NCBI GenBank assembly: GCA_964479945.1
Contig: CAYZNS010000002.1
Coordinates: 13,172 to 77,171 of the forward strand
Source: an uncultured Candidatus Saccharibacteria bacterium
GTDB taxonomy: Bacteria; Patescibacteriota; Minisyncoccia; Ryanbacterales; 2-02-FULL-48-12
Direction: 5' to 3'
Length of the DNA stretch: 64,000 bases
The notes below the pieces were generated by a model. That model saw nothing but the letters and a program-made list of their open reading frames with translations. It searched no databases and was not told the origin of the DNA. A program made the translations under genes and the position numbers. Shown one piece after another: positions 10,805-22,617 of this stretch (its first letter is position 1; the number at the start of each line of letters is the position of its first letter).

Positions 10805-13651
10805 TTAAAAAGTCCCGGTAGCAATATATGTCAAGGTGGTGGTATAACTACCGGCTTCGGTGGGGGCTGCGATATTGGCAATATATGAAATAGTGCAGGT
10901 CGTATCGTTGATTGAACCGCTCGAACTTACGATTGTCTCTCCTGACACGAATTTAAAGTTGTCAACGGTGCTGTAGCCGGTCGCGGCGGCAGCGACTGGT
11001 GAAGTGCCAGAACATTCCGCACCCACATTCGGTGTCGCATTATCTTTCGCGTTGATTCCGAACTGCTCTGTGCCGACAGAACTTGCGGCGGCGGTTGACA
11101 TGGCGGTAATGGTATTGCCGCTCGAGGTTAGTGTAGAACCAGAGTAGGTAACAACTACTCCATTGGCGGCATTCGTCCCGACGGTGATGGTATGAGAACC
11201 AGTGCTCACGGCGCTGCTTGACAATGTTCCAAGATTTATAGAATTTGCCCCTAAGCTGAAAGTAAGGGTTGGCCCGGCACCTCCGCCAGCGAGTGTAACT
11301 TGCGCGATAACATCGGCAGAGTTCAAAGCCGTGCCGGCGTTCGTCACCCTGAAACAATACACGCCGCCGTCCGTAGCGTTTGTATTTGCCTGAAAAACAT
11401 ACTCCACTTCGGTATATTGGTTTTGAGCCAAGGTAATCGCGCCTGATTGGTTAGATGTGCTTTCTACCTGATCGCCGGCCACGAAAGTATATGCTTCGGC
11501 ATTTGTAAGCTGAGCAGTAGTCGGATCGCCATCAACATAAAAACTGCTGCCGCTCAAAGTCATATCAAAATGTTCGGTAGTCGCCGTATCAGGAACCGCA
11601 GCATAACTCTCTCCACTGTATGCAGTGTCGCAGGTGCCACTCTGCGCCGCCCACTCCAAACGATAATTGTAAGCGGAAGCGCTGCCGCCGGTATTGTCCA
11701 CTTGAAAACGGAGTCGGATATTGGTGCTTTTGGCAAGGCCAGTGTGCACCGCATCCTCCGTCTGCGCCCAAGTTGCAGCAGGAACGGTGTAGGTTACCAA
11801 AACATATAAAGTTGAAATTTCTGCTTTGTTGCCGCTTCCCGTAAGCACCAATTCCATAGCATTCATCCGCGTCGTGTTGATGCTCAAGCCGGTAAATTGT
11901 TGTGTTTTTGTCTGGTCGGCCCCAGTAATAGCTTGGGCTGACCCCATCGAATCCGTGACGCCACATTCAACCGCATCACTGGCTATATTTATGCAATATC
12001 CTAAAGTGATGCTTGAATTCGGATTTCCGACATCATCTGCCCCGGCAACCGTGATATCAAGCTGAGTTACCGTCACGCCTGCCGGAAGAGCGTCATTAGC
12101 AAGCGTATAATAATCCGTCGCGGCGGCAAGTAAAAGTTGAGAGGTTTCCAGATCACTTGTCGGTGCGGTTGCCGAAGTATCCGCAGTGTCATCATCCACG
12201 CAATCCCATTCGCTTCCAGCAGTACATCCGCTAACGATGCTGAAACCCACCGCGCCAAAGCCATTGCCGGTCGGATTGAAATAAAGCGTTTGGTTTGTGT
12301 CTCCTTCTGGGCCGTTATCATTTCTCCAACGATAGTGGTCTTGAAACACATTTGGCAGAAGATTAAGGGTTGTCGCGCCGGAAATAGCCACAGCGGTGGC
12401 CGGACTCACCACTCCCGCTGAAACTGTCACCTCCGTGGATGGGTCGGTAATTTCAATCTCAAAAGTATCGGCATTAGGCGCACCGGACGCAACATTTAAT
12501 TGAACATAAACGCATATTTGGGAAGTGCCGACTACCATTGCGCTGTCGCCCGTTATCGCGGCTTTTTCCGAAGCGTTAAAACCAACGCCTGTGGCGTTAA
12601 AAGCTGTGGCGTCGCCGGGGATGGAAGCGGAACAACTTGCCTCTGTTTTGTAATATAATTTTACATTGGAAAGGTAGGTCTGAGCGACAAGCGAGGCATC
12701 CGTTTCGCTGATAGTTATGGCGGTAACATTTGCCGTGCCCTCATTTCTGACAAATGTAAAGGCACCTCCCACATACTGGTTAGTTGAAGGAATGTTCATA
12801 TTGGCGGTTTGGGTGCCGGTTGTCCCGACCGTAATCGTTGAAGGAGCGGGTTTGAGCGCCAAGGAAATCGCCCCTTTATATGTAGTGTTTGCCATTGTCA
12901 CAGCCGTTGTTGTGTATGACCCGGCACTTGCTTTCTCGCCCGTTGCCAAACAATGTCCTCCTCCTAGACCTTGTGTGCTGGAGTTATCCGTTCTTTCCTG
13001 TATATTTGCCAGATCCGCGTTCGTCCAGCCGGAACATTCGGTTGTGCTATTAGCGTTCCTGCTTGTCGAAGTTATAAGGACAATCAAGGCGTCGGCTACC
13101 GATGTTGTTGCGCCGGGGATAGTGCCACTCGTGTCATTGGCCGCGCTGTCGTTTCCGCCTGCACCCGTGTCCCACGGATCACCGGAGGTTATTACTCCAG
13201 TAAAACAATGTATCTGACCTTCTGTGTTATTGATAGAATCCGCGACTACCGGCGCGGAGTCGCCGCCGACAGTGCGCTTCCAATACAATGCCAACATGGA
13301 AGCCGGATCCGTAGCAGCCGTGCCGGCACCTTGCGGAGACCATGTAGGAACTTCAACAAACCCATTTGCTGTGGTCAGTGTAATCGCTTGGTTTTCCGAT
13401 GACACAGCCAGCAGACAGACATCGTTAGCTGCCATGTCCGCGGGATATGGCGGTGTTATCGCACCGGTTCCTGCCGTAAAAGTGCCGGAATTCCGATATC
13501 CTGGCAACGCCGCCAGCGCTTTCTGAATCCCCGGCGGAAAATTAAAAATTTGAGGAAATCCCGAAAAAATCCAAGAGAAAACTAAAACTGTTACCAGAAA
13601 GAATCTGGAAATTTTCAAAACCACGCTTTTTGGAGGCAAAAACTCTTTCAT
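10805..13651 (-). CDS. large Thr/Ser/Ala-rich secreted surface protein with shared C-terminal domain (CscC-like)
   Basis: 948 aa with a signal peptide. Low-complexity beta-rich body. C-terminal ~150 aa homologous to the 9308..10363 product. Confidence 0.5.
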   Translation of the reverse strand: MKEFLPPKSVVLKISRFFLVTVLVFSWIFSGFPQIFNFPPGIQKALAALPGYRNSGTFTAGTGAITPPYPADMAANDVCLLAVSSENQAITLTTANGFVEVPTWSPQGAGTAATDPASMLALYWKRTVGGDSAPVVADSINNTEGQIHCFTGVITSGDPWDTGAGGNDSAANDTSGTIPGATTSVADALIVLITSTSRNANSTTECSGWTNADLANIQERTDNSSTQGLGGGHCLATGEKASAGSYTTTAVTMANTTYKGAISLALKPAPSTITVGTTGTQTANMNIPSTNQYVGGAFTFVRNEGTANVTAITISETDASLVAQTYLSNVKLYYKTEASCSASIPGDATAFNATGVGFNASEKAAITGDSAMVVGTSQICVYVQLNVASGAPNADTFEIEITDPSTEVTVSAGVVSPATAVAISGATTLNLLPNVFQDHYRWRNDNGPEGDTNQTLYFNPTGNGFGAVGFSIVSGCTAGSEWDCVDDDTADTSATAPTSDLETSQLLLAAATDYYTLANDALPAGVTVTQLDITVAGADDVGNPNSSITLGYCINIASDAVECGVTDSMGSAQAITGADQTKTQQFTGLSINTTRMNAMELVLTGSGNKAEISTLYVLVTYTVPAATWAQTEDAVHTGLAKSTNIRLRFQVDNTGGSASAYNYRLEWAAQSGTCDTAYSGESYAAVPDTATTEHFDMTLSGSSFYVDGDPTTAQLTNAEAYTFVAGDQVESTSNQSGAITLAQNQYTEVEYVFQANTNATDGGVYCFRVTNAGTALNSADVIAQVTLAGGGAGPTLTFSLGANSINLGTLSSSAVSTGSHTITVGTNAANGVVVTYSGSTLTSSGNTITAMSTAAASSVGTEQFGINAKDNATPNVGAECSGTSPVAAAATGYSTVDNFKFVSGETIVSSSGSINDTTCTISYIANIAAPTEAGSYTTTLTYIATGTF

Positions 13652-14360: not shown

Positions 14361-14380
14361 CCCTTTTTAGCCGTTCTGTA
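14361..14380. repeat. direct repeat DR-L (ccctttttagccgttctgta), a remnant copy of the rnhB 3' end
   Basis: 20/20 identical to 21595..21614. Read on the minus strand it encodes ...IQNG*, compared with ...VQNG* for the intact rnhB end. Confidence 0.7.
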
Positions 14381-14436: not shown

Positions 14437-14982
14437 CTATATTTCCTCCAAAACCTGATCGATTTTTCCCTCCATAAGCTCAATTAAGCGGCGGTTGGCG
14501 GTGATGATTTCTTCTTCTTTTTCCGCTTCGGCGGCGAGCTGTTTTTGGATTTCAATTGGCGGAAAAGGGATTTGCAAGTTTTTTACGAACGATAGATTTG
14601 CCATTTTGTATTTGTTATCGCTACCGACAAACCGGTCATGCAGCATACCAAGCGCATAAAATAAAAATTTTGAATCTAAATCCTTTTCATTTATTGGCGA
14701 TAGAGATGCAATGTTCTGATTTGTGCAAAAGTCAAAAGTTACATATCCAGTTTTTCCAATAGTTGCTCCGACAAGAGCAACTATTGCCGTGTTTGCATGA
14801 ATCAACTTTGCCGATGAATTATTTAGACCTTTTTTCGATATGTATGTTTTGGGGTTAGTAATTATCAAATCTTTACATACTTCTGATTTCAACCAAGGTA
14901 CTTCTGGTGGTTCATAGTATTCTTTTATTTTTGTGTCCGGGGTACCACCTGATTTTACTTCGCAAACTTTCCCCAATTCCAC
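14437..14982 (-). CDS. hsdS: type I restriction-modification specificity subunit, half-size (single TRD)
   Basis: 181 aa. TRD-like N-terminal region plus the conserved IPFPPIEIQKQL segment and a coiled C-terminus. Confidence 0.7.
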   Translation of the reverse strand: MELGKVCEVKSGGTPDTKIKEYYEPPEVPWLKSEVCKDLIITNPKTYISKKGLNNSSAKLIHANTAIVALVGATIGKTGYVTFDFCTNQNIASLSPINEKDLDSKFLFYALGMLHDRFVGSDNKYKMANLSFVKNLQIPFPPIEIQKQLAAEAEKEEEIITANRRLIELMEGKIDQVLEEI

Positions 14983-15004
14983 CCACTCAACATCTTTTAA
15001 TTTT

Positions 15005-16915
15005 CTAAGCGACTGGCCAAAATAGCGTCTCTCTCTCTAGATTTTTGATAATTTCTTTGGCGTGCTTGATGGAATTTTCCTTCGCCTCAATTTGCTCCAC
15101 GATTTCATTTTGCACGTCTAAAGGCGGGAGTGGGATTTTGATTTCATAAAAATGATCAATGTTCAGATTCTTTTGCGCACCGCCACGGGCACACATAAAA
15201 ATTTCTTCCTGCCGCTGCAATAAAATTTTCCCAACAAAATCCTTGCTCAACTTATCTTGATATTCGGATTTAACTGAAAAAGTTCCGCCGGAATCCATAA
15301 GCCAAAATTTTTCAGGCACATATCGCACACAGTGCTCTGCCATGGCAAATCGAGCAATTAAGTAGTCATTTTCTCGATTAAATTTGTCTGTTCTAAAACT
15401 TTCTCCACCGCCGCCATAGACAGGATATTTTGTACCGCGATTTCCATGTTTTGTGATTCTTTCTCCAAAATTTAGCTTGATCAGTTTCCCCAATTCAATC
15501 ATTGGCCACTTTTCATTTTTTACAGCAGCAACGTCTCTGTATCTTTCGCTGGTTAAACTGTATTCACCGCTTTCAGCAATTTTTTCTTTTTTAACCCAAA
15601 GCGCAAGAGTACTTTCTCCCGCCTGCGCCGAAGCTTCGACGGGCAGGTGTTTTTTGCCATTCTTCCACGCGTCTAAAATCGCCAATGTTTCCGGCAGATC
15701 GTTTTTATCAATCTTCCGTCTTTGCGCGCCGAGATCAAAGCCGTCGTTTTCTACCTTTACAAACAAAATCTCATCGCTCTTTTTGGCAAGCTGATTATCA
15801 AAAAAGAGAATACTTGTTTTTACATTCCCTTTGCCGCCGGGTTTGGCAAACACGCCTTGCGGCAAGGAGACGACGGCATACAAGCCATCTTCAACTAACT
15901 TTTTCCGTAATTCTTTATATGCCGAATCATTCCTAAAAATCACTCCTTCCGGCACGATTATACCCGCCCGTCCCTTGATGTTGAGGTGCTCCAAAATATA
16001 ATCAACAAACAACACCTCACTGCGCGTGGCTTGCACGGAAAAACGCTTGTGGGGGCGAATACCGCCCTTTGGCGTCATAAACGGCGGATTGGCGAGGATT
16101 ACGTCAAAGGTATCGTCCCAGCGATCCTCATACGTCAACGTGTCGTACTCGTATATTTTCGGATTGGGGAAATGGTGCAAGTACATATTCACGATGGCGA
16201 TCCGCATCATTCCCGGATCAATGTCGTAACCGACAAAATTACTCATCATTTTTTGCTTTTCTTCCGGTGAAAGGCGTTTTTCCGCGCTCGTCGGCTCGCC
16301 CGATGGGTCTTTGCCGTCGTGCTGGCGTAAAATGTGTTTGTACGCGGAAATCAAAAATCCGGCCGTGCCGCAAGCGGGGTTCAAAATTGTTTCGTTTTTC
16401 TTCGGCGCGACAACTTCAACGATAAAATCAATAATATGGCGCGGCGTGCGAAATTGTCCGGCTTCTCCCGAAGTGCCTATAACATTCAGCAGATATTCAT
16501 AGGCGTCGCCCAAGTCCTCACTGTGGTCAAAAATAAATCCGTCAATTTCTTTCAAAAATAAATTTAATGTTTGAGCGTCGTTATATGGCAATGCCGCACT
16601 CTTAAAAATATCCCTAAAAAGTTGCGGGATGTGTGAATTTTTGGACATATTCGTGATGGCTTGCACATACAGATCAAGCCGCTCGGCTCCAGAAAGCCGT
16701 TTATCCAAAAGTTTGGTCCAGCTGTATTTGGCAAAATCCTCCACAAAATATTGCGCTTTCAACCCGACTCCTTCATTTTCTTTATCCATATCGTCCATAA
16801 ACTTGTAAATCAGCGCAATCGTAATCTGATCAACCTGTAATTGTGGGTTTGGAATTCTCCCAACAAGAATATCGCGCGCCGAGTCAATTTTTCGTTTTGT
16901 GATTTGGTCAAGCAT
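15005..16915 (-). CDS. hsdM: type I R-M N6-adenine DNA methyltransferase fused to a C-terminal target-recognition domain
   Basis: HsdM N-terminal domain, then the MTase core (ILNPACGTAGFLISAY ... ILANPPF). The C-terminal ~200 aa are HsdS-like (TRD plus IPLPPLDVQNEIVEQIE). Confidence 0.8.
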   Translation of the reverse strand: MLDQITKRKIDSARDILVGRIPNPQLQVDQITIALIYKFMDDMDKENEGVGLKAQYFVEDFAKYSWTKLLDKRLSGAERLDLYVQAITNMSKNSHIPQLFRDIFKSAALPYNDAQTLNLFLKEIDGFIFDHSEDLGDAYEYLLNVIGTSGEAGQFRTPRHIIDFIVEVVAPKKNETILNPACGTAGFLISAYKHILRQHDGKDPSGEPTSAEKRLSPEEKQKMMSNFVGYDIDPGMMRIAIVNMYLHHFPNPKIYEYDTLTYEDRWDDTFDVILANPPFMTPKGGIRPHKRFSVQATRSEVLFVDYILEHLNIKGRAGIIVPEGVIFRNDSAYKELRKKLVEDGLYAVVSLPQGVFAKPGGKGNVKTSILFFDNQLAKKSDEILFVKVENDGFDLGAQRRKIDKNDLPETLAILDAWKNGKKHLPVEASAQAGESTLALWVKKEKIAESGEYSLTSERYRDVAAVKNEKWPMIELGKLIKLNFGERITKHGNRGTKYPVYGGGGESFRTDKFNRENDYLIARFAMAEHCVRYVPEKFWLMDSGGTFSVKSEYQDKLSKDFVGKILLQRQEEIFMCARGGAQKNLNIDHFYEIKIPLPPLDVQNEIVEQIEAKENSIKHAKEIIKNLERETLFWPVA

Positions 16916-16917
16916 GG

Positions 16918-17913
16918 TTATTTTTTCTTGATGGACTTTGATAGTTTTTTCACTTCCCTGTCAAAATCAGAAATGTGCTTTTTGTCTTGCTTTTTTTTAT
17001 ATTTGGAAAATTCACTTTCCGCTTTTTCATTCGCTTTTTCCGCGCTCACCTTGCCCGCGTTCAGCAAAAGTTTTTTCTCGCTTAATTTTAGAAATTCATC
17101 AAGCTTTACCGCCCATTCGGCCATTTTCATCGGGCGTTCGTTGGTTGCTTGAAGTTCGGCAAAGTCCAAATACAAGGACACAATAAGGTTAAGTTGCTTG
17201 AGTTCTTTTTCAGAAAGATAATTTTTGGCAATTTTTGCGTCTCCGGCAGTAATATAGTTCCCCTTAAAATTTGAGAGTCCCATCATCGGTTTTTTGCTGT
17301 CGGCGCGCAAAGATACTATTTCCGCGGCGGTATATCCGTGCACGGCATAGTGCATTTTGTTTTGTACGGTAGCAAAAAACTTTTTTGTAAGCTCATCGTC
17401 TTTCCGATAGTCAATGCTGGTTGCGTAAATGTCCGTAACTTTTTGATAAAAATTACGCTCGCTACTGCGAATATCGCGGACGCGCTGGAGCAATTCTTCA
17501 AAGTACCGCGCTCGCTCTCCGCCTTGCTTCATCCGCTCATCGTCCAATGCAAAACCCTTAATAATATAATCACGAAGCCGCGCCGTCGCCCAAATACGGA
17601 ATTGAGTAGCTCGTTTTGAATTAACGCGGTAACCCAAAGCAATAATAACGTCCAAATTATAATGTTTTGCATCATATTTTTTCCCATCGTCGGCAGTTAT
17701 TAAGAAATTCTTAATAACTGATTTTTCGCCCAATTCGCCTGTTTCGAAGATATTTTTAAGATGTTGATTGATTGCGGATGTGGTAACCTCGAACAACTCC
17801 GCCATTAATTTTTGAGTAAGCCAAACAGTTTCATCTTGAAAATAAACATTAACCTTTGCTTGGCCGTCTTCGCTTTGATAAATGACGATCTGTGATTGTT
17901 GATTTTTTTTCAT
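16918..17913 (-). CDS. RhuM-family protein embedded in the R-M operon
   Basis: 331 aa. The N-terminal region IVIYQSEDGQAKVNVYFQDETVWLTQKLMAELFEV matches the RhuM family that commonly sits between hsdR and hsdM (recalled from memory). Lys-rich tail. Confidence 0.55.
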   Translation of the reverse strand: MKKNQQSQIVIYQSEDGQAKVNVYFQDETVWLTQKLMAELFEVTTSAINQHLKNIFETGELGEKSVIKNFLITADDGKKYDAKHYNLDVIIALGYRVNSKRATQFRIWATARLRDYIIKGFALDDERMKQGGERARYFEELLQRVRDIRSSERNFYQKVTDIYATSIDYRKDDELTKKFFATVQNKMHYAVHGYTAAEIVSLRADSKKPMMGLSNFKGNYITAGDAKIAKNYLSEKELKQLNLIVSLYLDFAELQATNERPMKMAEWAVKLDEFLKLSEKKLLLNAGKVSAEKANEKAESEFSKYKKKQDKKHISDFDREVKKLSKSIKKK

Positions 17914-17917
17914 AGTC

Positions 17918-19516
17918 TTATTTCATGTATTGATTAACCGGCACATAATCTTTTACATATTCCGGCACTTTATTGCGCCAGCCATTTAATGATTGATATT
18001 CTTCCATGGTAAAAGCACCATAATCACGTGGGAACCTACCAGCATTAATTTCTTGCCTGAATCGCTCATCCCCAACATATACTTTAAGAAAATTTCGGAT
18101 ATGCGGCACATATTTATTTTCCGGCTTGTAGATTGAAATAAATTTCTCAACCTCGTCTTCCAATTTTTCGTCTTTAGATTTGAAAGCGTCAATCAAGCCG
18201 AATACGCGCTCCAGAAATTCGCGCCATGATAAACGGCGGTCAAGATTTTCGCTTTTGCGAATTTTTTCAAGGTTAAGGAAAAGCTCCGGCTTATCTTCGT
18301 ATTTGTCGCGCAGAATTTTTACGGCTTTTTCCCATTGTTCCTGATCCACCGCCTGTTTAACTTCTTCGTCATTTTGGATTTTCTTTCTCGCTTCTTCAAA
18401 TAATTTGCGATCAACCTTCATACCCTCCAATCCGATCGCATATTCTTTGATGATTTTTTCCTTGTCCGGCTCAAAAATCGTAATCTCATCAATATCAACA
18501 GGGCCGGGGCCATCTCCACCAGAACCGCCCTTTTTTATCGGCAATTTTATGGCTTCGTCATAATCAAACTTCTCTTCAAAGTATTCAAAGTTGGCGAAGA
18601 AATCGAAAAACTTGAATTTGTCTTTGATGACTTTTCGCACTTCGCCGTCCTCGTCCTTATATTCAAACGTATATTTTCGAGTGCCGCGGCCTTTCATCTG
18701 CACAAAATCTGTCGGCGAAAAAACAGGACGAAGCAAGGCGAGGTTCAAAATATCTTCGCAGTCATAGCCAGTCGTCATCATACCGACGGTAACGCAGATC
18801 CTTGTTTTACTTGATTTGTAGCCGGGCAGAAATTTTGTGTGGCCGCCCAAGGTATTGTTGGCGAAATTGATCGTCATTTGCGGGGAGCCCTGAATGTTTG
18901 AGGTGATTTGAACGGCAAAATCAGAACTGTATTTGTCTGGCCATACTTGATGAGCTTGTCTGTTTAAGGTTTGCGTAATCTTGGAAGCGTGTTTTTGGCT
19001 GACGCAGAAAATAAGCGTCTTGCCCATCTCGCCGCTTATCGGATCTTTCAAGGCATTTTCAATAATGGATTTGCAGAACACCTGATTTGTTTTGTCGGAA
19101 AAGAATTTTTTCTCAAAGTCGCGCTGGAAAAAAGTTTCTTCGGTTTCTTCGCCTTCTTCATTTTCAACCATTACCGCATAGCCCTTTTCCGAAAGAAGCT
19201 CCGTGGTAATGTCGGTACGCGCGTCAACGGCAACAGGATTGATGAGGTAGCCGTCTTTTACGCCATCAAGCAAGGTATATCTGAACGTCGGCTCGCCGCT
19301 CGGACAGCCAAAAGTCGTGTAGGTATCCAATAGTTGCCTGCGTTCCCACGCGCGCGGATCATTTGCTGAGAGTTTTTGAGAATCAACATTTTTTAGATAA
19401 TCTTTCGGCGTTGCAGTAAGTCCGAGTTTATATCCGACAAAGTATTCAAAGACGGCGCGCCTGTTCTTTGCCGTCGAGCGGGTCTTTCTCCTCTTTCTTT
19501 GCTTCCAAAACGACAA
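17918..19516 (-). pseudogene. hsdR: hsdR C-terminal fragment (helicase motifs III-VI and C-terminal domain)
   Basis: Begins at LGLTATPKDY (helicase motif III) and contains QMKGRGTR (motif VI). It lacks the nuclease core and helicase motifs I-II. Confidence 0.65.
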
Positions 19517-19736
19517 ATGGAAATCCCTTTTCGTCTAGCAGTAGGAAATCAATAAATCCGCCTTTGGTACTTTCAAAATCTTCGCCAAAAGCGTCAATGT
19601 CTTTCTTTGCGATTTTTACGTTTGGTTCAAGCTGGATATTTGCCGATTCTTTTTCGTCATCAAAAAATCGCCACCCTACATCTTCAAGCAGTTTGTTAAT
19701 TTTAATTCTCGCCTTTGCTTCTTTGGAATTTGCCAT
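19446..19736 (-). pseudogene. hsdR: hsdR N-terminal fragment (HsdR_N nuclease motif only)
   Basis: 96 aa with RIKINKLLEDVGW and the D...EAK nuclease motif (IDFLLLDEKGFPFVVLEAKK). It overlaps the C-terminal fragment by 71 bp in a different frame, indicating an internal deletion plus frameshift of ~400 codons. Confidence 0.55.
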
Positions 19737-19740
19737 AAAT

Positions 19741-20208
19741 TTACTTTGCGGTTCTTTCGCCGTTTAATATCCTCTCGAACGCTTCGAGGTTGCCCATGGC
19801 GTCATTAACAGGATTGTGGTCATGTGCTGTAACTCGCAGCTTTTTCCATGAGCTCGCGTCGGTAAAGTCACCGACGAGCCCGGCATAAAAATCGCCGATT
19901 CTCCTCGCGGAATGACCGAATGGGTTTTTGCCGAGAAATAGATGAAAATAATAATTTATGAATTGCCAGTCGTAAGCCGGATTGTCGCTCACGAATAGCG
20001 GTCTGAATCCTTTCTCTATCACCGATAAAATCCATGTATCGAAATTTTCGAATGTTTCTTTTTTCGCCCCTATTCCGTGGAATGCTTGTTTTGAAGGATA
20101 AGCGATTGCGCCAAATTCAAATGACGCCGAGTCGTTCAATGTCGGTGCGGGCCCGTGTCCTTCACAATCCACGAATATTAAGTTTTTAATGGCGATTTCC
20201 TTTGGCAT
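19741..20208 (-). CDS. DEDDh-type 3'-5' exonuclease (DnaQ-like fold)
   Basis: Start chosen at MPKEIAIKNLIFVDCEG (DxE motif I). C-terminal motif HDHNPVNDAMGNLEAF (H...D). The start overlaps the upstream ATPase stop by 4 nt, suggesting translational coupling. Confidence 0.5.
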   Translation of the reverse strand: MPKEIAIKNLIFVDCEGHGPAPTLNDSASFEFGAIAYPSKQAFHGIGAKKETFENFDTWILSVIEKGFRPLFVSDNPAYDWQFINYYFHLFLGKNPFGHSARRIGDFYAGLVGDFTDASSWKKLRVTAHDHNPVNDAMGNLEAFERILNGERTAK

Positions 20209-20210
20209 AT

Positions 20211-21482
20211 TTATTTGTTGGGCTTTTCCAATAGCCATTTCCAAAGCGGCTTTAACTGTATGGTTTTTCCGTCTCGTTTTACTTCGCGCTCTTCATCCCA
20301 TGTAAGTACGGTCAACTTTGACACTTTCAGTTCTTCTCCAGCTTCGGCTAAAGATTTCACTTCGCGCTGTTCAACATCGGGATTTCTTAAGTCGTAAGAA
20401 ATCTGAATAAGTTCGGATGTCTCGTATCCGTACCGAATCGCAAAATCGACCTCTCGATCGTTACGGGTCTTGTAATAAAATAATTCTCGGTTCGGCTCAA
20501 ATCCTCTTTTTACCAATTCGGTAAAGACAAGATTTTCCATGAGCTTGCCGTTATCAGGAGAATGCTGAACGGCTTTGGAAGCAACAAAACCGTTATCTAC
20601 CGTGTATATCTTTTTGGGTGAACGCAGGCGTTCACTGGCTTTCGCGGAAAATCCGGAAAGGGAAAAAACGACGTATGCTTCCTCGAGATATTTAAGATAC
20701 CGCTCAAGCGTCACATTACTCTTGAATTTCAAAACGTTTGCGAGCTTCCGGAAACTATACTGACTGGAAACATTGTTTATTAAAAATGTTCCGAGCTGAT
20801 CTATCTGCTCGGAAAAACGAACCTTGTGGCGCTTCACCACGTCCTTAAAAAGGAGTGCATCGAAAAGCACATCCAAATATCCGCGCGGATGCTGATTCTT
20901 TATCACCACTTCGGGAAAGCCGCCGAATGCCATATACTGCTCCAGCAATTTCAAAAGCTCTGATTTCTGGTCAAACTCTGAGAAGTTTTTAGCTTTTAGA
21001 AATTCTTGAAAATCAAACGGCATTATTTCTATGGGCATATGTCTCCCCGTCAAATGTGTCGCAAGCTCCATTGATAAGAGATTCGCGTTCGATCCGGTTA
21101 TCACGAGATTGTATCCCTGGCGGTGCAGGCGGTTGGCGAACAGTTCCCAGCCTCGAAGGTTTTGTATTTCGTCGAATAAGGCGAGTTTGGTATCGCCGTA
21201 GAATTTGTGTAACTCATCCACGAGCTCGTATAAATCCAATTTTTCTCCGACCAACGCCGGATCGTCAAAATTAAAATAGAGAAAAGGCTTGCCTCTTAGG
21301 AGCATGAGGGAAAAGACGGACTTGCCGGCGCGGCGCGGGCCGAGCACCACCTTAATCAAAGGCGAGGACATCCATTCTGAACCCTTCGCCAGCTTAGTCC
21401 TTTCCACATAGGTCAAATTAGCCAAGGCTACTTTTTCTTGGTTTTGTTTGGATATAACCTCTTTTAACAGGCTTTTTTGCAT
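20211..21482 (-). CDS. AAA+ ATPase (AAA_14-like P-loop GPRRAGKS) with C-terminal DUF4143-like region
   Basis: 423 aa. Walker A GPRRAGKS and Walker B LALFDEIQ. The C-terminal part (EVDFAIRYGYETSELIQISY) resembles DUF4143, which I recall as a restriction-endonuclease-like fold. Confidence 0.6.
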   Translation of the reverse strand: MQKSLLKEVISKQNQEKVALANLTYVERTKLAKGSEWMSSPLIKVVLGPRRAGKSVFSLMLLRGKPFLYFNFDDPALVGEKLDLYELVDELHKFYGDTKLALFDEIQNLRGWELFANRLHRQGYNLVITGSNANLLSMELATHLTGRHMPIEIMPFDFQEFLKAKNFSEFDQKSELLKLLEQYMAFGGFPEVVIKNQHPRGYLDVLFDALLFKDVVKRHKVRFSEQIDQLGTFLINNVSSQYSFRKLANVLKFKSNVTLERYLKYLEEAYVVFSLSGFSAKASERLRSPKKIYTVDNGFVASKAVQHSPDNGKLMENLVFTELVKRGFEPNRELFYYKTRNDREVDFAIRYGYETSELIQISYDLRNPDVEQREVKSLAEAGEELKVSKLTVLTWDEEREVKRDGKTIQLKPLWKWLLEKPNK

Positions 21483-21594
21483 AGTATTTTAGTCGTATTA
21501 AACATTATATGCCTTTTTTGTTCATTACAATTATTATATTAAACATAAGGGGAAAATGCAATAACCGTGAATTATTATTCTCATTTTACTCTCA

Positions 21595-21614
21595 CCCTTT
21601 TTAGCCGTTCTGTA
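21595..21614. repeat. direct repeat DR-R (overlaps the rnhB stop codon)
   Basis: Identical 20-mer to DR-L. On the minus strand it encodes the RNase HII C-terminus GCVQNG*. Confidence 0.7.
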
Positions 21615-22230
21615 CACACCCGTTAAACGTACGCCGGTGGTGGGGCGTGAGGCCGAATCTTGCTATGGATTCCCGGTGCTCCGCTGTGCCATATCCTTTG
21701 TTCCGCTCAAACCCGTAGCGCGGGTATGTATGGTGCAGGCGCGTCATATAGCGGTCGCGGTGCACTTTTGCCACAATGGAAGCCGCGGCAATCAAAGGCA
21801 CGCGCTCATCACCCTTTATGATCGTCTGCTGGTTTTTATATGCGGGAGGAGCGGCTAGACCGCCGTCTAGTAGAATTATGAATCTGGAATTATGAATTAT
21901 GGGAAATGCCTTGAGAAGTTTCCGCAATGACCTCATAACGGCGACAGAACAAGCCCATCTGATTCCGTTTTTATCAATGACAGAATGAGAAACGGAACTA
22001 ATGGTACACGGAAAGTTTTTTCTAATTATTTTATCCCACCCTTCCCTCTGTTTTGATGAAAGTCTTTTTGAATCGCGTATATTTTTTAACCCATAATTCA
22101 TAATTCCAGATTCATAATTCACCATTGCGGCCACTGCCGCAATGGTTACCGGTCCCGCCAACGGCCCCCGCCCCACTTCGTCTATTCCTATAATCCACAC
22201 CTGCGTGGCGCGTCCCTTGACTGTATCCAT
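21601..22230 (-). CDS. rnhB: ribonuclease HII
   Basis: GIDEVGRGPLAGPV, DSKRLS and LLDGG motifs. Start set at MDTVKG. Contains two in-frame insertions encoded by a perfect 31-bp inverted repeat. Confidence 0.85.
   Translation of the reverse strand: MDTVKGRATQVWIIGIDEVGRGPLAGPVTIAAVAAMVNYESGIMNYGLKNIRDSKRLSSKQREGWDKIIRKNFPCTISSVSHSVIDKNGIRWACSVAVMRSLRKLLKAFPIIHNSRFIILLDGGLAAPPAYKNQQTIIKGDERVPLIAAASIVAKVHRDRYMTRLHHTYPRYGFERNKGYGTAEHRESIARFGLTPHHRRTFNGCVQNG
21873..21903. repeat. 31-bp inverted-repeat arm 1 inside the rnhB CDS (gaattatgaatctggaattatgaattatggg)
   Basis: Exact reverse complement of 22090..22120. Translated in frame as PIIHNSRFII. Confidence 0.8.
22090..22120. repeat. 31-bp inverted-repeat arm 2 inside the rnhB CDS
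   Basis: Translated in frame as NYESGIMNYG. The arms are separated by exactly 186 bp (62 codons) containing the catalytic DSK region. Confidence 0.8.
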
Positions 22231-22257
22231 ATCACTATGGTACGCTATACATATCGT

Positions 22258-22617
22258 ATGACTCAACAAGTTCTCTCGTTTTTCCAGATAGGCGTGGCCG
22301 TTTTGCTGGGTGCCGCCATTCTACTTCAGCAAAAAGGAGCGGGCCTTTCCAGCGCTTTCGGCGGAGAAGGCGGCTTTTACCGTACGAAACGGGGATTTGA
22401 GAAAATTCTTTTGGTATCCACCATAATCCTTTCCATTTTATTCGTTGCGACAGGCATTGTGCGCATTGTTATGGCTCCCAATATGCCTGCCGCTCCGGTC
22501 ATTCCCGGTGATAGCGGTATCATCCCTTCATTTGAACTTGGCGCTGAAGAGTCACCGACGCCGCTCATAAGTCCGGAAGTTGAAATTTCGGGCGAAACGG
22601 CGCCTTCTCAAGAATAA
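22258..22617 (+). CDS. secG: preprotein translocase subunit SecG
   Basis: MTQQVLSFFQIGVAVLLGAAILLQQKGAGLSSAFGG matches the SecG N-terminal TM-Gly-rich signature. Divergent from rnhB. Confidence 0.7.
   Translation: MTQQVLSFFQIGVAVLLGAAILLQQKGAGLSSAFGGEGGFYRTKRGFEKILLVSTIILSILFVATGIVRIVMAPNMPAAPVIPGDSGIIPSFELGAEESPTPLISPEVEISGETAPSQE

Follow-up and report, generated by a model that had tools for sequence, protein, structure and literature searches.

We analyzed a 64,000-nucleotide (nt) stretch of DNA from an uncultured Candidatus Saccharibacteria bacterium (positions 13,172 to 77,171 of contig CAYZNS010000002.1, assembly GCA_964479945.1; the whole stretch is called the window below), in which a gene for an AAA+ NTPase is directly followed by a gene for a DEDDh 3′–5′ exonuclease. 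The ATPase adds a new member to the known candidate defense family PDC-S01, and the exonuclease is a relative of Cap18, a known accessory enzyme of the cyclic oligonucleotide-based antiphage signaling system (CBASS). Comparison of related loci revealed that the pairing is facultative and that the exonuclease also follows several other defense genes. The reading that we favor, with slightly better than even confidence, is that of an autonomous defense-candidate ATPase accompanied by a facultative, promoterless accessory phosphodiesterase of the Cap18 type, which would tune the response.

Facultative pairing of the ATPase and exonuclease genes

The association was surveyed from both genes. On the exonuclease side, with one genome per species, a relative turned up in 228 of the 185,579 species genomes, from which 80 loci were retrieved (cited by L numbers where they must be told apart). 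A close set of 26 loci encoded an exonuclease at least 85% identical to that of the window, and 23 of these had readable upstream sequence. The upstream gene was a PDC-S01 ATPase on the same strand and at most 5 nt away in 19 of the 23 loci, a SoFic-type Fic gene in 3, and something else in 1. Co-occurrence in other genomes, on which the original prediction of a two-gene defense module depended, was thus found, and a housekeeping operon was rejected, since the exonuclease is limited to those 228 species genomes and stands in variable contexts. In 22 of the 23 loci, the exonuclease lies directly downstream of a co-oriented defense gene at a distance of no more than 5 nt, leaving no room for a promoter of its own. 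The partner ATPases fall into two distinct subfamilies (423 to 433 and 477 to 489 amino acids [aa]), and Pfam and PADLOC place both in PDC-S01. The window is homologous to L008, L017, L021, L028, L091, and L146 over exactly 21561..19729 (~80% identity in nt, >88% in aa) within unrelated flanks, indicating that the ATPase and the exonuclease move together as a 1.83-kb cassette; in blastn comparisons with L088 (98.6%) and with L089 and L090, homology starts at 21575.

On the ATPase side, the survey covered 60 metagenome loci with an ATPase 63 to 100% identical to that of the window and at least 520 nt of downstream sequence. A full exonuclease gene followed the ATPase in seven loci, one of which also had a Zn-ribbon remnant, and a cut-down or pseudogenised exonuclease followed it in two. 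Elsewhere the slot held a 63-aa DUF7695-like Zn-ribbon gene (11 loci), a Zn-ribbon remnant without exonuclease (4 loci), or neither gene (36 loci). Any exonuclease was thus missing from 51 of the 60 loci, including cassettes 98.6%, 94%, and 93% identical in nt. The closest of these, L088, matches the window over 21575..20190; of the exonuclease gene, it retains the initial 18 nt as part of a 10-codon relic (MPKEIA, then NILK and a stop codon), after which an EcoRI-type methylase gene follows. In L151, the exonuclease is pseudogenised by an in-frame stop near codon 22, and an ATPase 85% identical to that of the window (P0152) occurs by itself in ten places, flanked by rpoD and an htrA-like gene. 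The Zn-ribbon gene (MPKEIANKTKEETYYKCTHCGDEIFWNTHKK...) occupies the slot in loci within the range L102 to L145, for example at L110 2199-2390, and is not in the window.

Since intact ATPases occur without the exonuclease, the latter is dispensable for keeping the ATPase, and this rules out an addiction or antitoxin relation and argues against an obligate two-gene system. The original prediction had treated the pair as one system, which does not fit seven exonucleases in 60 close ATPase loci and a 98.6%-identical cassette that lacks one. Whether genes of the AAA_14–DUF4143 type are recurrently followed by a DEDDh exonuclease thus has a divided answer: the association is strong when followed from the exonuclease but weak when followed from the ATPase.

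Nor is the exonuclease dedicated to this ATPase, as had been supposed. It was found behind SoFic (L024, 1.7e-107 in Pfam/PADLOC), a short Fic gene of PDC-S04 (L005), RhuM genes of PDC-S05 (L037, L072, and L259), AbiEi–AbiEii (L045, L051, and L036, with AbiEii keeping its own antitoxin AbiEi upstream), and a CBASS oligonucleotide cyclase (L069 and L070; PDLC00803, 3.6e-78). The genes downstream vary likewise and include hsdR, PLD-SNF2 restriction helicases (L024 and L026), the Zn-ribbon gene, and housekeeping genes, and TOTE-type primase-helicases lie near the exonuclease in two loci. Copies behind different genes are 84 to 88% identical in nt to the exonuclease of the window, and the exonuclease is ~90% identical in aa where the partner ATPase is only 66% identical. 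Distant relatives, mostly from outside the candidate phyla radiation (CPR), follow genes for an ImmA-like peptidase, NYN, helix-turn-helix, or SNF2 proteins, or a methyltransferase. Separately, L069 4715-6510, from a Paceibacterota metagenome-assembled genome (MAG), presents a minimal CBASS-like array of a 168-aa membrane protein, a 255-aa cyclase, and a Cap18-like exonuclease, followed by a TOTE-type primase-helicase.

The junction of the two genes in the window reads AAC AAA TAA at ATG CCA AAG, with the ATPase stop codon at 20213-20211 and the exonuclease ATG at 20208; the stop and start are therefore separated by 2 nt and do not overlap by 4 nt (ATGA), as first described. The mechanical open reading frame (ORF) of the exonuclease begins at TTG 20244 (167 aa), and a further in-frame start lies at ATG 20238, but both are unlikely, because the N termini of 27 homologues align with the methionine at 20208 and DNA homology to loci with another upstream gene starts at 20214, i.e., exactly at the exonuclease start. 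ATG 20208 was accepted on these two grounds, giving a protein of 155 aa instead of the 156 aa originally reported. Scans for consensus promoters and terminators gave matches at chance level only.

The exonuclease gene opens with the 18 nt ATGCCAAAGGAAATCGCC, which encode MPKEIA. Searching 2.13 Mb of fetched DNA with up to two mismatches revealed 57 occurrences of this motif versus ~0.09 expected, and it opens unrelated genes: the exonuclease, the DUF7695-like Zn-ribbon protein, an HsdM-like protein, a PLD-helicase, and relic mini-ORFs. Its positions include 20191-20208 (minus strand) in the window, L009 6001/6475, L010 6001/6465, L017 6471, L026 4501, L088 3864, and L105 4299. The PLD-helicase starts with MPKEIAK joined to NSDLT in L026 versus MNSDLT in L024, and it is exactly the 18 nt of this motif that the exonuclease-less L088 has kept. 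In L009, L010, L013, L016, L019, and L104, the exonuclease is placed between two copies, one at its own start and one at the start of the next gene. To judge from their sequences, L105 and L088 seem to have arisen by deletions between or within MPKEIA repeats, and the repeats suggest a simple route by which the exonuclease could be gained or lost, through recombination at gene starts, in the variable slot 3′ of the ATPase.

Identities of the two proteins

In an alignment of 28 exonuclease sequences, D14, E16, D80 (within the motif N76-x3-D80), H131, and D136, which make up the DEDDh set, are invariant, bearing out the original assignment of the ORF ending at 19741 to the DnaQ-like 3′–5′ exonucleases. 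The active site is intact and under strong purifying selection. The best Foldseek match of its AlphaFold2 model (predicted local distance difference test [pLDDT] 93.4) was PDB entry 7t2s, the Cap18 3′–5′ exonuclease of Escherichia coli upec-117 (E 1.9e-9, template modeling [TM] score 0.76, 28% identity), compared with 1e-4 and 14% identity for RNase T. Consistent with this, a profile of the exonuclease family matched 7t2s at 1.8e-17 and RNase T at 0.016 (hmmsearch). The sole PADLOC match was the CBASS model PDLC00753 'Effector/Exonuclease' (2e-20), which covers the C-terminal two thirds only; for ten diverse relatives, the E-values of the CBASS model were similarly moderate, 1e-6 to 1e-22. The family is of modest size, with 1148 clusters found at E<=1e-3 in 1.84 billion representatives. 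Pfam contained no family for the exonuclease at E<=0.1, and NCBIfam and PHROGs contained none for either protein. Assignment to the Rv2179c-like 3′–5′ exoribonucleases (PF16473) was rejected, as the model gave no match and only 2 of the 120 homologues listed had a precomputed PF16473 match. The scores with the CBASS model suggest a sister group of CBASS Cap18, and the exonuclease is treated here as such and not as a proven member of that clade.

Cap18 is an accessory gene of a type III CBASS, and a catalytically dead Cap18 left protection against lambda unimpaired (10.1101/2022.01.04.474952). CBASS Exo, present in ~4% of CBASS operons, does not cut generic DNA or RNA (e.g., SmExo) and instead hydrolyzes the 2′–5′-linked linear intermediate of cyclic GMP-AMP synthesis; it sets the activation threshold and prevents toxicity, acting as a regulator and not as a killing effector, and VcExo has the catalytic pattern D9/E11/N97/D101/H157/D162 (bioRxiv 10.1101/2025.03.04.641389). 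No CBASS nucleotidyltransferase (CD-NTase) was found among the six genes of the island in which the pair lies, and tblastn with the L069 cyclase gave no match in the window.

The 423-aa P-loop ATPase with a DUF4143-like C terminus was confirmed as predicted: Pfam detected AAA_14 (1.6e-28, residues 43 to 162) and DUF4143 (3.6e-24, residues 213 to 354). PADLOC matched the protein over its full length to PDLC04787, PDC-S01 (2.1e-103, residues 24 to 420, profile positions 9 to 409 of 412). The PADLOC and hidden Markov model classification that had been proposed as a check thus placed both proteins, and neither is unrecognized: one belongs to a named candidate family and the other to the Cap18/CBASS Exo lineage. 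The Walker A (GPRRAGKS, G48-x4-G53-K54-S55) and Walker B (D104-E105) motifs show no variation among 91 ATPase relatives, nor do E316 and D346 of the nuclease-like motifs in DUF4143. The third PD-(D/E)xK motif in this clade of PDC-S01 is Q360-V-C/S362 (window ~20399-20404) in place of E-x-K and has no lysine; this could mean that the nuclease-fold domain lacks catalytic activity or uses a lysine at another position. AlphaFold2 gave a poor overall model of the ATPase (pLDDT 61), in which the C-terminal part has the expected alpha-beta-beta-beta-alpha-beta order, and Foldseek with this model returned only the generic AAA+/archaeal Walker ATPase fold (TM <=0.26). No useful match was obtained with phmmer against PDB sequences.

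PDC-S01 is a single-gene candidate derived from 'guilt by embedding', an ATPase of the COG1373 type fused to a PD-(D/E)xK domain; it is unvalidated and is reported to be the fourth most common predicted defense in prokaryotes (PMC12988326). The defense context originally noted for the pair holds, in that the ATPase is embedded with a type I restriction-modification (R-M) remnant and a RhuM gene (PDC-S05) in the same island. Other copies of the ATPase adjoin genes for an EcoRI methylase, a TOTE helicase, or T5orf172-ResIII; those adjoining R-M genes number 12 of 80, and most copies do not. Next to a second PDC-S01 ATPase, L255 1023-3029 is called as a 668-aa product with AAA_14, DUF4143, and sigma-70, either a true fusion or separate genes merged by the gene call.

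The defense island and its other genes

The features of the locus are collected in Table 1. A perfect 20-nt direct repeat, CCCTTTTTAGCCGTTCTGTA, brackets a 7.2-kb island, in agreement with the repeat-bounded island of the original prediction; by our estimate, chance alone would give ~5e-5 such matches in 11 kb. GC content is 0.40 to 0.45 in the island versus 0.49 to 0.54 in the flanks. Six genes, all on the minus strand and with spacers of 2 to 22 nt, are arranged in the order ATPase, exonuclease, broken hsdR, RhuM, HsdM-HsdS fusion, and half HsdS. No integrase was found in the 7.2 kb. The whole looks like an R-M/defense island that was probably inserted with target duplication at the rnhB stop codon.

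Table 1. Coordinates of the features of the locus in the window
Feature	Coordinates	Strand	Basis
Gene for PDC-S01-type AAA+ NTPase, 423 aa, AAA_14 plus C-terminal PD-(D/E)xK-like DUF4143	20211..21482	-	ORF, Pfam, PADLOC
Gene for Cap18-like DEDDh 3′–5′ exonuclease/phosphodiesterase, 155 aa	19741..20208	-	Homologue N termini, homology breakpoint, PADLOC, profile, AlphaFold2, Foldseek
Gene junction: ATPase TAA, 2-nt spacer, ATGCCAAAGGAAATCGCC (MPKEIA), a motif at the 5′ end of coding sequences that is common to unrelated cassette genes	20191..20213	-	Sequence
Conserved region upstream of the ATPase, traveling with the cassette; presumed promoter/5′ untranslated region	21483..21575	-	blastn homology
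Left copy of the perfect 20-nt direct repeat, over the last rnhB codons and stop	21595..21614	.	Repeat search
Right copy of the perfect 20-nt direct repeat, far end of the 7.2-kb island	14361..14380	.	Repeat search
Inactivated type I hsdR, helicase motifs I-II deleted	17918..19736	-	NCBIfam, HSDR_N, motif scan
RhuM-family gene (PADLOC PDC-S05)	16918..17913	-	Pfam, PADLOC
Type I R-M methylase-specificity genes	14437..16915	-	Pfam N6_Mtase, Methylase_S; PADLOC MTase_I, Specificity_I
rnhB (RNase HII), chromosomal gene with the island at its 3′ end	21601..22269	-	NCBIfam ribonuclease HII 8e-57

The hsdR gene is split into an N-terminal nuclease fragment of 96 aa (19736..19446), with a weak HSDR_N match, and a C-terminal fragment of 532 aa (19516..17918) in another frame. 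The NCBIfam model of the EcoAI-type R subunit, 768 positions long, is matched only at positions 23 to 84 and 320 to 650, and no GxGK[ST] or DExH motif was found in any frame of 17900-19760; helicase motif III (TATP) comes directly after the nuclease fragment. Judged by its sequence, hsdR is dead, being split and deleted for helicase motifs I and II, and the view that the adjoining R-M system has a dead restriction subunit was upheld. The island thus holds HsdM-S and HsdS but no intact type I R-M system. The RhuM gene was identified by Pfam (Virulence_RhuM, 2.3e-108) and PADLOC (PDC-S05, 1.8e-142). The HsdM-HsdS fusion is a single 636-aa ORF (16915..15005) with N6_Mtase (5e-52) and Methylase_S, and a separate 181-aa half HsdS (14982..14437) matches Methylase_S at 1.9e-21. 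The assignments of hsdM-S and hsdS to MTase_I and Specificity_I are among the best 25 families reported by a PADLOC scan of 53 window ORFs, so weak matches elsewhere stay possible.

A neighboring protein of the window matches the CPR pilin PamT, and nearly all related loci are from CPR MAGs, which places the genome in the CPR/Patescibacteria. Just outside the island repeat, the segment 14126-14323 (minus strand) is conserved at 78 to 98% nt identity; two further CPR contigs (L020 706-944 and L089 2388-2467) carry it on the upstream side of an ATPase cassette, and it may encode a 44-aa ORF (MAKIRNKLKVFVAMYTNEG...). An exact search for this flank in the fetched loci gave no match, and Rfam matched neither the island nor the flank. 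On the other side, a perfect 31-nt inverted repeat (21873-21903 and 22090-22120, 186 nt between the arms) lies wholly within the RNase HII coding region, with both arms in frame (NYESGIMNYG and PIIHNSRFII), which is unexpected for a conserved gene.

Competing readings and known systems

In the reading that we favor, the ATPase would be an autonomous unit with its own upstream region of ~90 nt, usually occurring alone, and is predicted to be an anti-phage or anti-mobile genetic element (MGE) protein that detects foreign nucleic acid or acts on it. The exonuclease occupies a variable slot 3′ of the ATPase, in which the alternatives are the 63-aa Zn-ribbon gene or nothing, and would be expressed by read-through or re-initiation from whichever gene lies upstream. 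Its predicted substrates are short 3′-OH-terminated nucleotides, either oligonucleotide or linear-intermediate signals as for Cap18/Exo or 3′ tails. It would thereby tune or limit the activity of its partner and would not be the partner's required nuclease. The comparisons establish the identities and architecture of the two proteins, the island, the recurrent but optional pairing, the promoterless position of the exonuclease, and its many partners; the anti-phage role, the substrate, and the direction of regulation are all predicted, and a role as a brake, taken by itself, is somewhat less likely than not and is proposed by analogy with CBASS Exo.

Several observations weigh against this reading. 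The defense role of PDC-S01 is itself a prediction, and the one representative assayed in E. coli failed to protect it against T4, T5, or T7 (10.1101/2024.09.26.614923). No nucleotide-linked product of the ATPase is known that a Cap18-type enzyme could remove, so the brake is an analogy. With only 28% identity to Cap18 and moderate E-values in the CBASS comparisons, the substrate of the exonuclease may differ. Tight spacing runs throughout the island, and the short distance between the two genes thus says nothing specific about the pair. Finally, exonucleases ~55 to 72% identical to that of the window sit in phage or MGE modules (L257 2292-8432, L167 5437-6546, L205 4051-5931, and L263), those in phage replication modules being ~70% identical; one such module has the order SNF2 helicase, exonuclease, DnaB, primase, and PolA, and others lie near gyrB, RNA ligase, or SpoU methylase genes or in a YopX/HNH context. 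These relatives would fit a general function on DNA or RNA ends, or an anti-defense role, equally well, and this enzyme family is also used by mobile elements, possibly for end processing or counter-defense.

One alternative is that the exonuclease is a generic co-effector, resecting 3′ ends that are exposed after its partner (ATPase-nuclease, Fic, AbiEii, or RhuM) damages or marks phage nucleic acid, and so boosting defense. The intact and selected DEDDh site would be expected of such an enzyme, its position allows co-expression with diverse defense genes, and phage relatives beside helicase, RNA ligase, and replication genes suggest a polynucleotide substrate. However, the closest characterized relatives take dinucleotide or 2′–5′ substrates only (10.1101/2025.03.04.641389), protection was not reduced with catalytically dead Cap18 (10.1101/2022.01.04.474952), and the protein, at 155 aa versus 187 aa for Cap18, has no extra nucleic-acid-binding domain. 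We consider this role unlikely.

Improbable to the same degree is that the exonuclease is an MGE or phage gene for replication, end processing, or anti-signaling counter-defense, which hitch-hikes in mobile islands with no functional link to the ATPase. The family has 130 matches on IMG/VR viral contigs, relatives occur in the SNF2-DnaB-primase-PolA and YopX/HNH settings described above, and Borgs have a Cap18-like core protein but no CBASS (PMC11208441); the cassette-like boundaries and flanking repeats are also in keeping with mobility. A mere passenger, however, would hardly account for 22 of 23 close loci in which the gene sits directly behind a co-oriented defense gene with no promoter room, or for partners that are almost all PADLOC defense families.

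That the two genes form an obligate two-component defense system, with the ATPase sensing infection and the exonuclease as its dedicated nuclease effector, is a poor prospect. Seen from the exonuclease the pairing is strong (19 of 23) and moves as a unit, and an external nuclease could help an ATPase whose nuclease-like domain has Q-x-C/S and not the canonical lysine. Yet this reading has to contend with the 51 of 60 close ATPase loci that have no exonuclease, nearly identical cassettes (98.6%, 94%, and 93%) included, with exonuclease relics and pseudogenes beside intact ATPases, with at least five other partner families, and with the inactivity of the Cap18-related SmExo on generic DNA and RNA (10.1101/2025.03.04.641389). 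A toxin–antitoxin-like relation, in which the exonuclease neutralizes upstream toxins or erases their product, such as 3′ nucleotides added by AbiEii/MenT-type enzymes, is very unlikely indeed: the partners do include the classic toxins AbiEii and Fic, and a 3′–5′ exonuclease could in principle reverse 3′-nucleotidylation, but intact ATPases persist after exonuclease loss (51 of 60 loci and the L088 deletion relic), AbiEii loci retain AbiEi to give AbiEi-AbiEii-exo, and no nucleotidyl product is known for an AAA+ ATPase.

The reading of an autonomous ATPase with an accessory exonuclease corrects the tempting equation of an ATPase plus a nuclease with a new system; its evidence is comparative and its biological payoff hypothetical. 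As far as the searchable literature shows, a Cap18-like exonuclease in such a context is apparently undescribed. Cap18/Exo was given a biochemical role only recently and within CBASS alone, and a close-knit Cap18-like lineage behind PDC-S01 and at least five other defense genes suggests that the job of the enzyme is not CBASS-specific. A bolder proposition, decidedly unlikely as a whole, joins two parts: that the Cap18-like exonuclease is a general, portable immune brake or eraser for non-canonical nucleotide linkages, and that the MPKEIA junction marks cassette exchange at an 18- to 25-nt repeat. If the first part is true, PDC-S01, SoFic, RhuM, and AbiE make, or answer to, short 2′–5′- or 3′-linked nucleotide products; if the second is true, promoterless accessory genes are swapped behind defense genes by recombination. 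Natural pairs with and without the exonuclease provide a concrete handle on each defense gene, including PDC-S01, which has no known mechanism.

Accessory genes are known in type I R-M operons, for instance PrrC within EcoprrI, or RhuM, Fic, or Abi genes inserted in hsd loci. The present island resembles them in that the ATPase, the exonuclease, and RhuM share one co-directional array with hsdR, hsdM, and hsdS, and a close ATPase copy (L088) precedes an EcoRI-type methylase; it differs in its dead hsdR and in that most ATPase copies lie away from R-M genes. The Borg protein, likened by its description, resembles the exonuclease of the window in having the Cap18 fold and in lying on a mobile element that has no other CBASS components, but its host is archaeal and its extrachromosomal element is giant. 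With Cap18/CBASS Exo (upec-117 Cap18, 7t2s; SmExo; VcExo), the exonuclease of the window shares the DEDDh fold with D-x-E, N-x3-D, and H-x4-D, and relatives of it in L069 and L070 come after a CBASS cyclase. Both are also minority accessory genes, found in ~4% of CBASS operons and ~12% of the close PDC-S01 loci here. Relative to the 187-aa Cap18, the stretch separating Exo motifs I and II is shorter in the exonuclease, most of its partner genes are not from CBASS, and the 2′–5′ specificity is known for CBASS Exo alone. Compared with PDC-S01, the ATPase has the full-length profile match, the AAA_14 plus DUF4143 architecture, intact ATPase motifs, and the embedding among defense genes, whereas its clade carries Q-x-C/S at the expected PD-(D/E)xK lysine motif; and while PDC-S01 was defined as a single gene, the ATPase of the window and those of at least 19 species genomes have an accessory slot on the 3′ side that holds a Cap18-like exonuclease.

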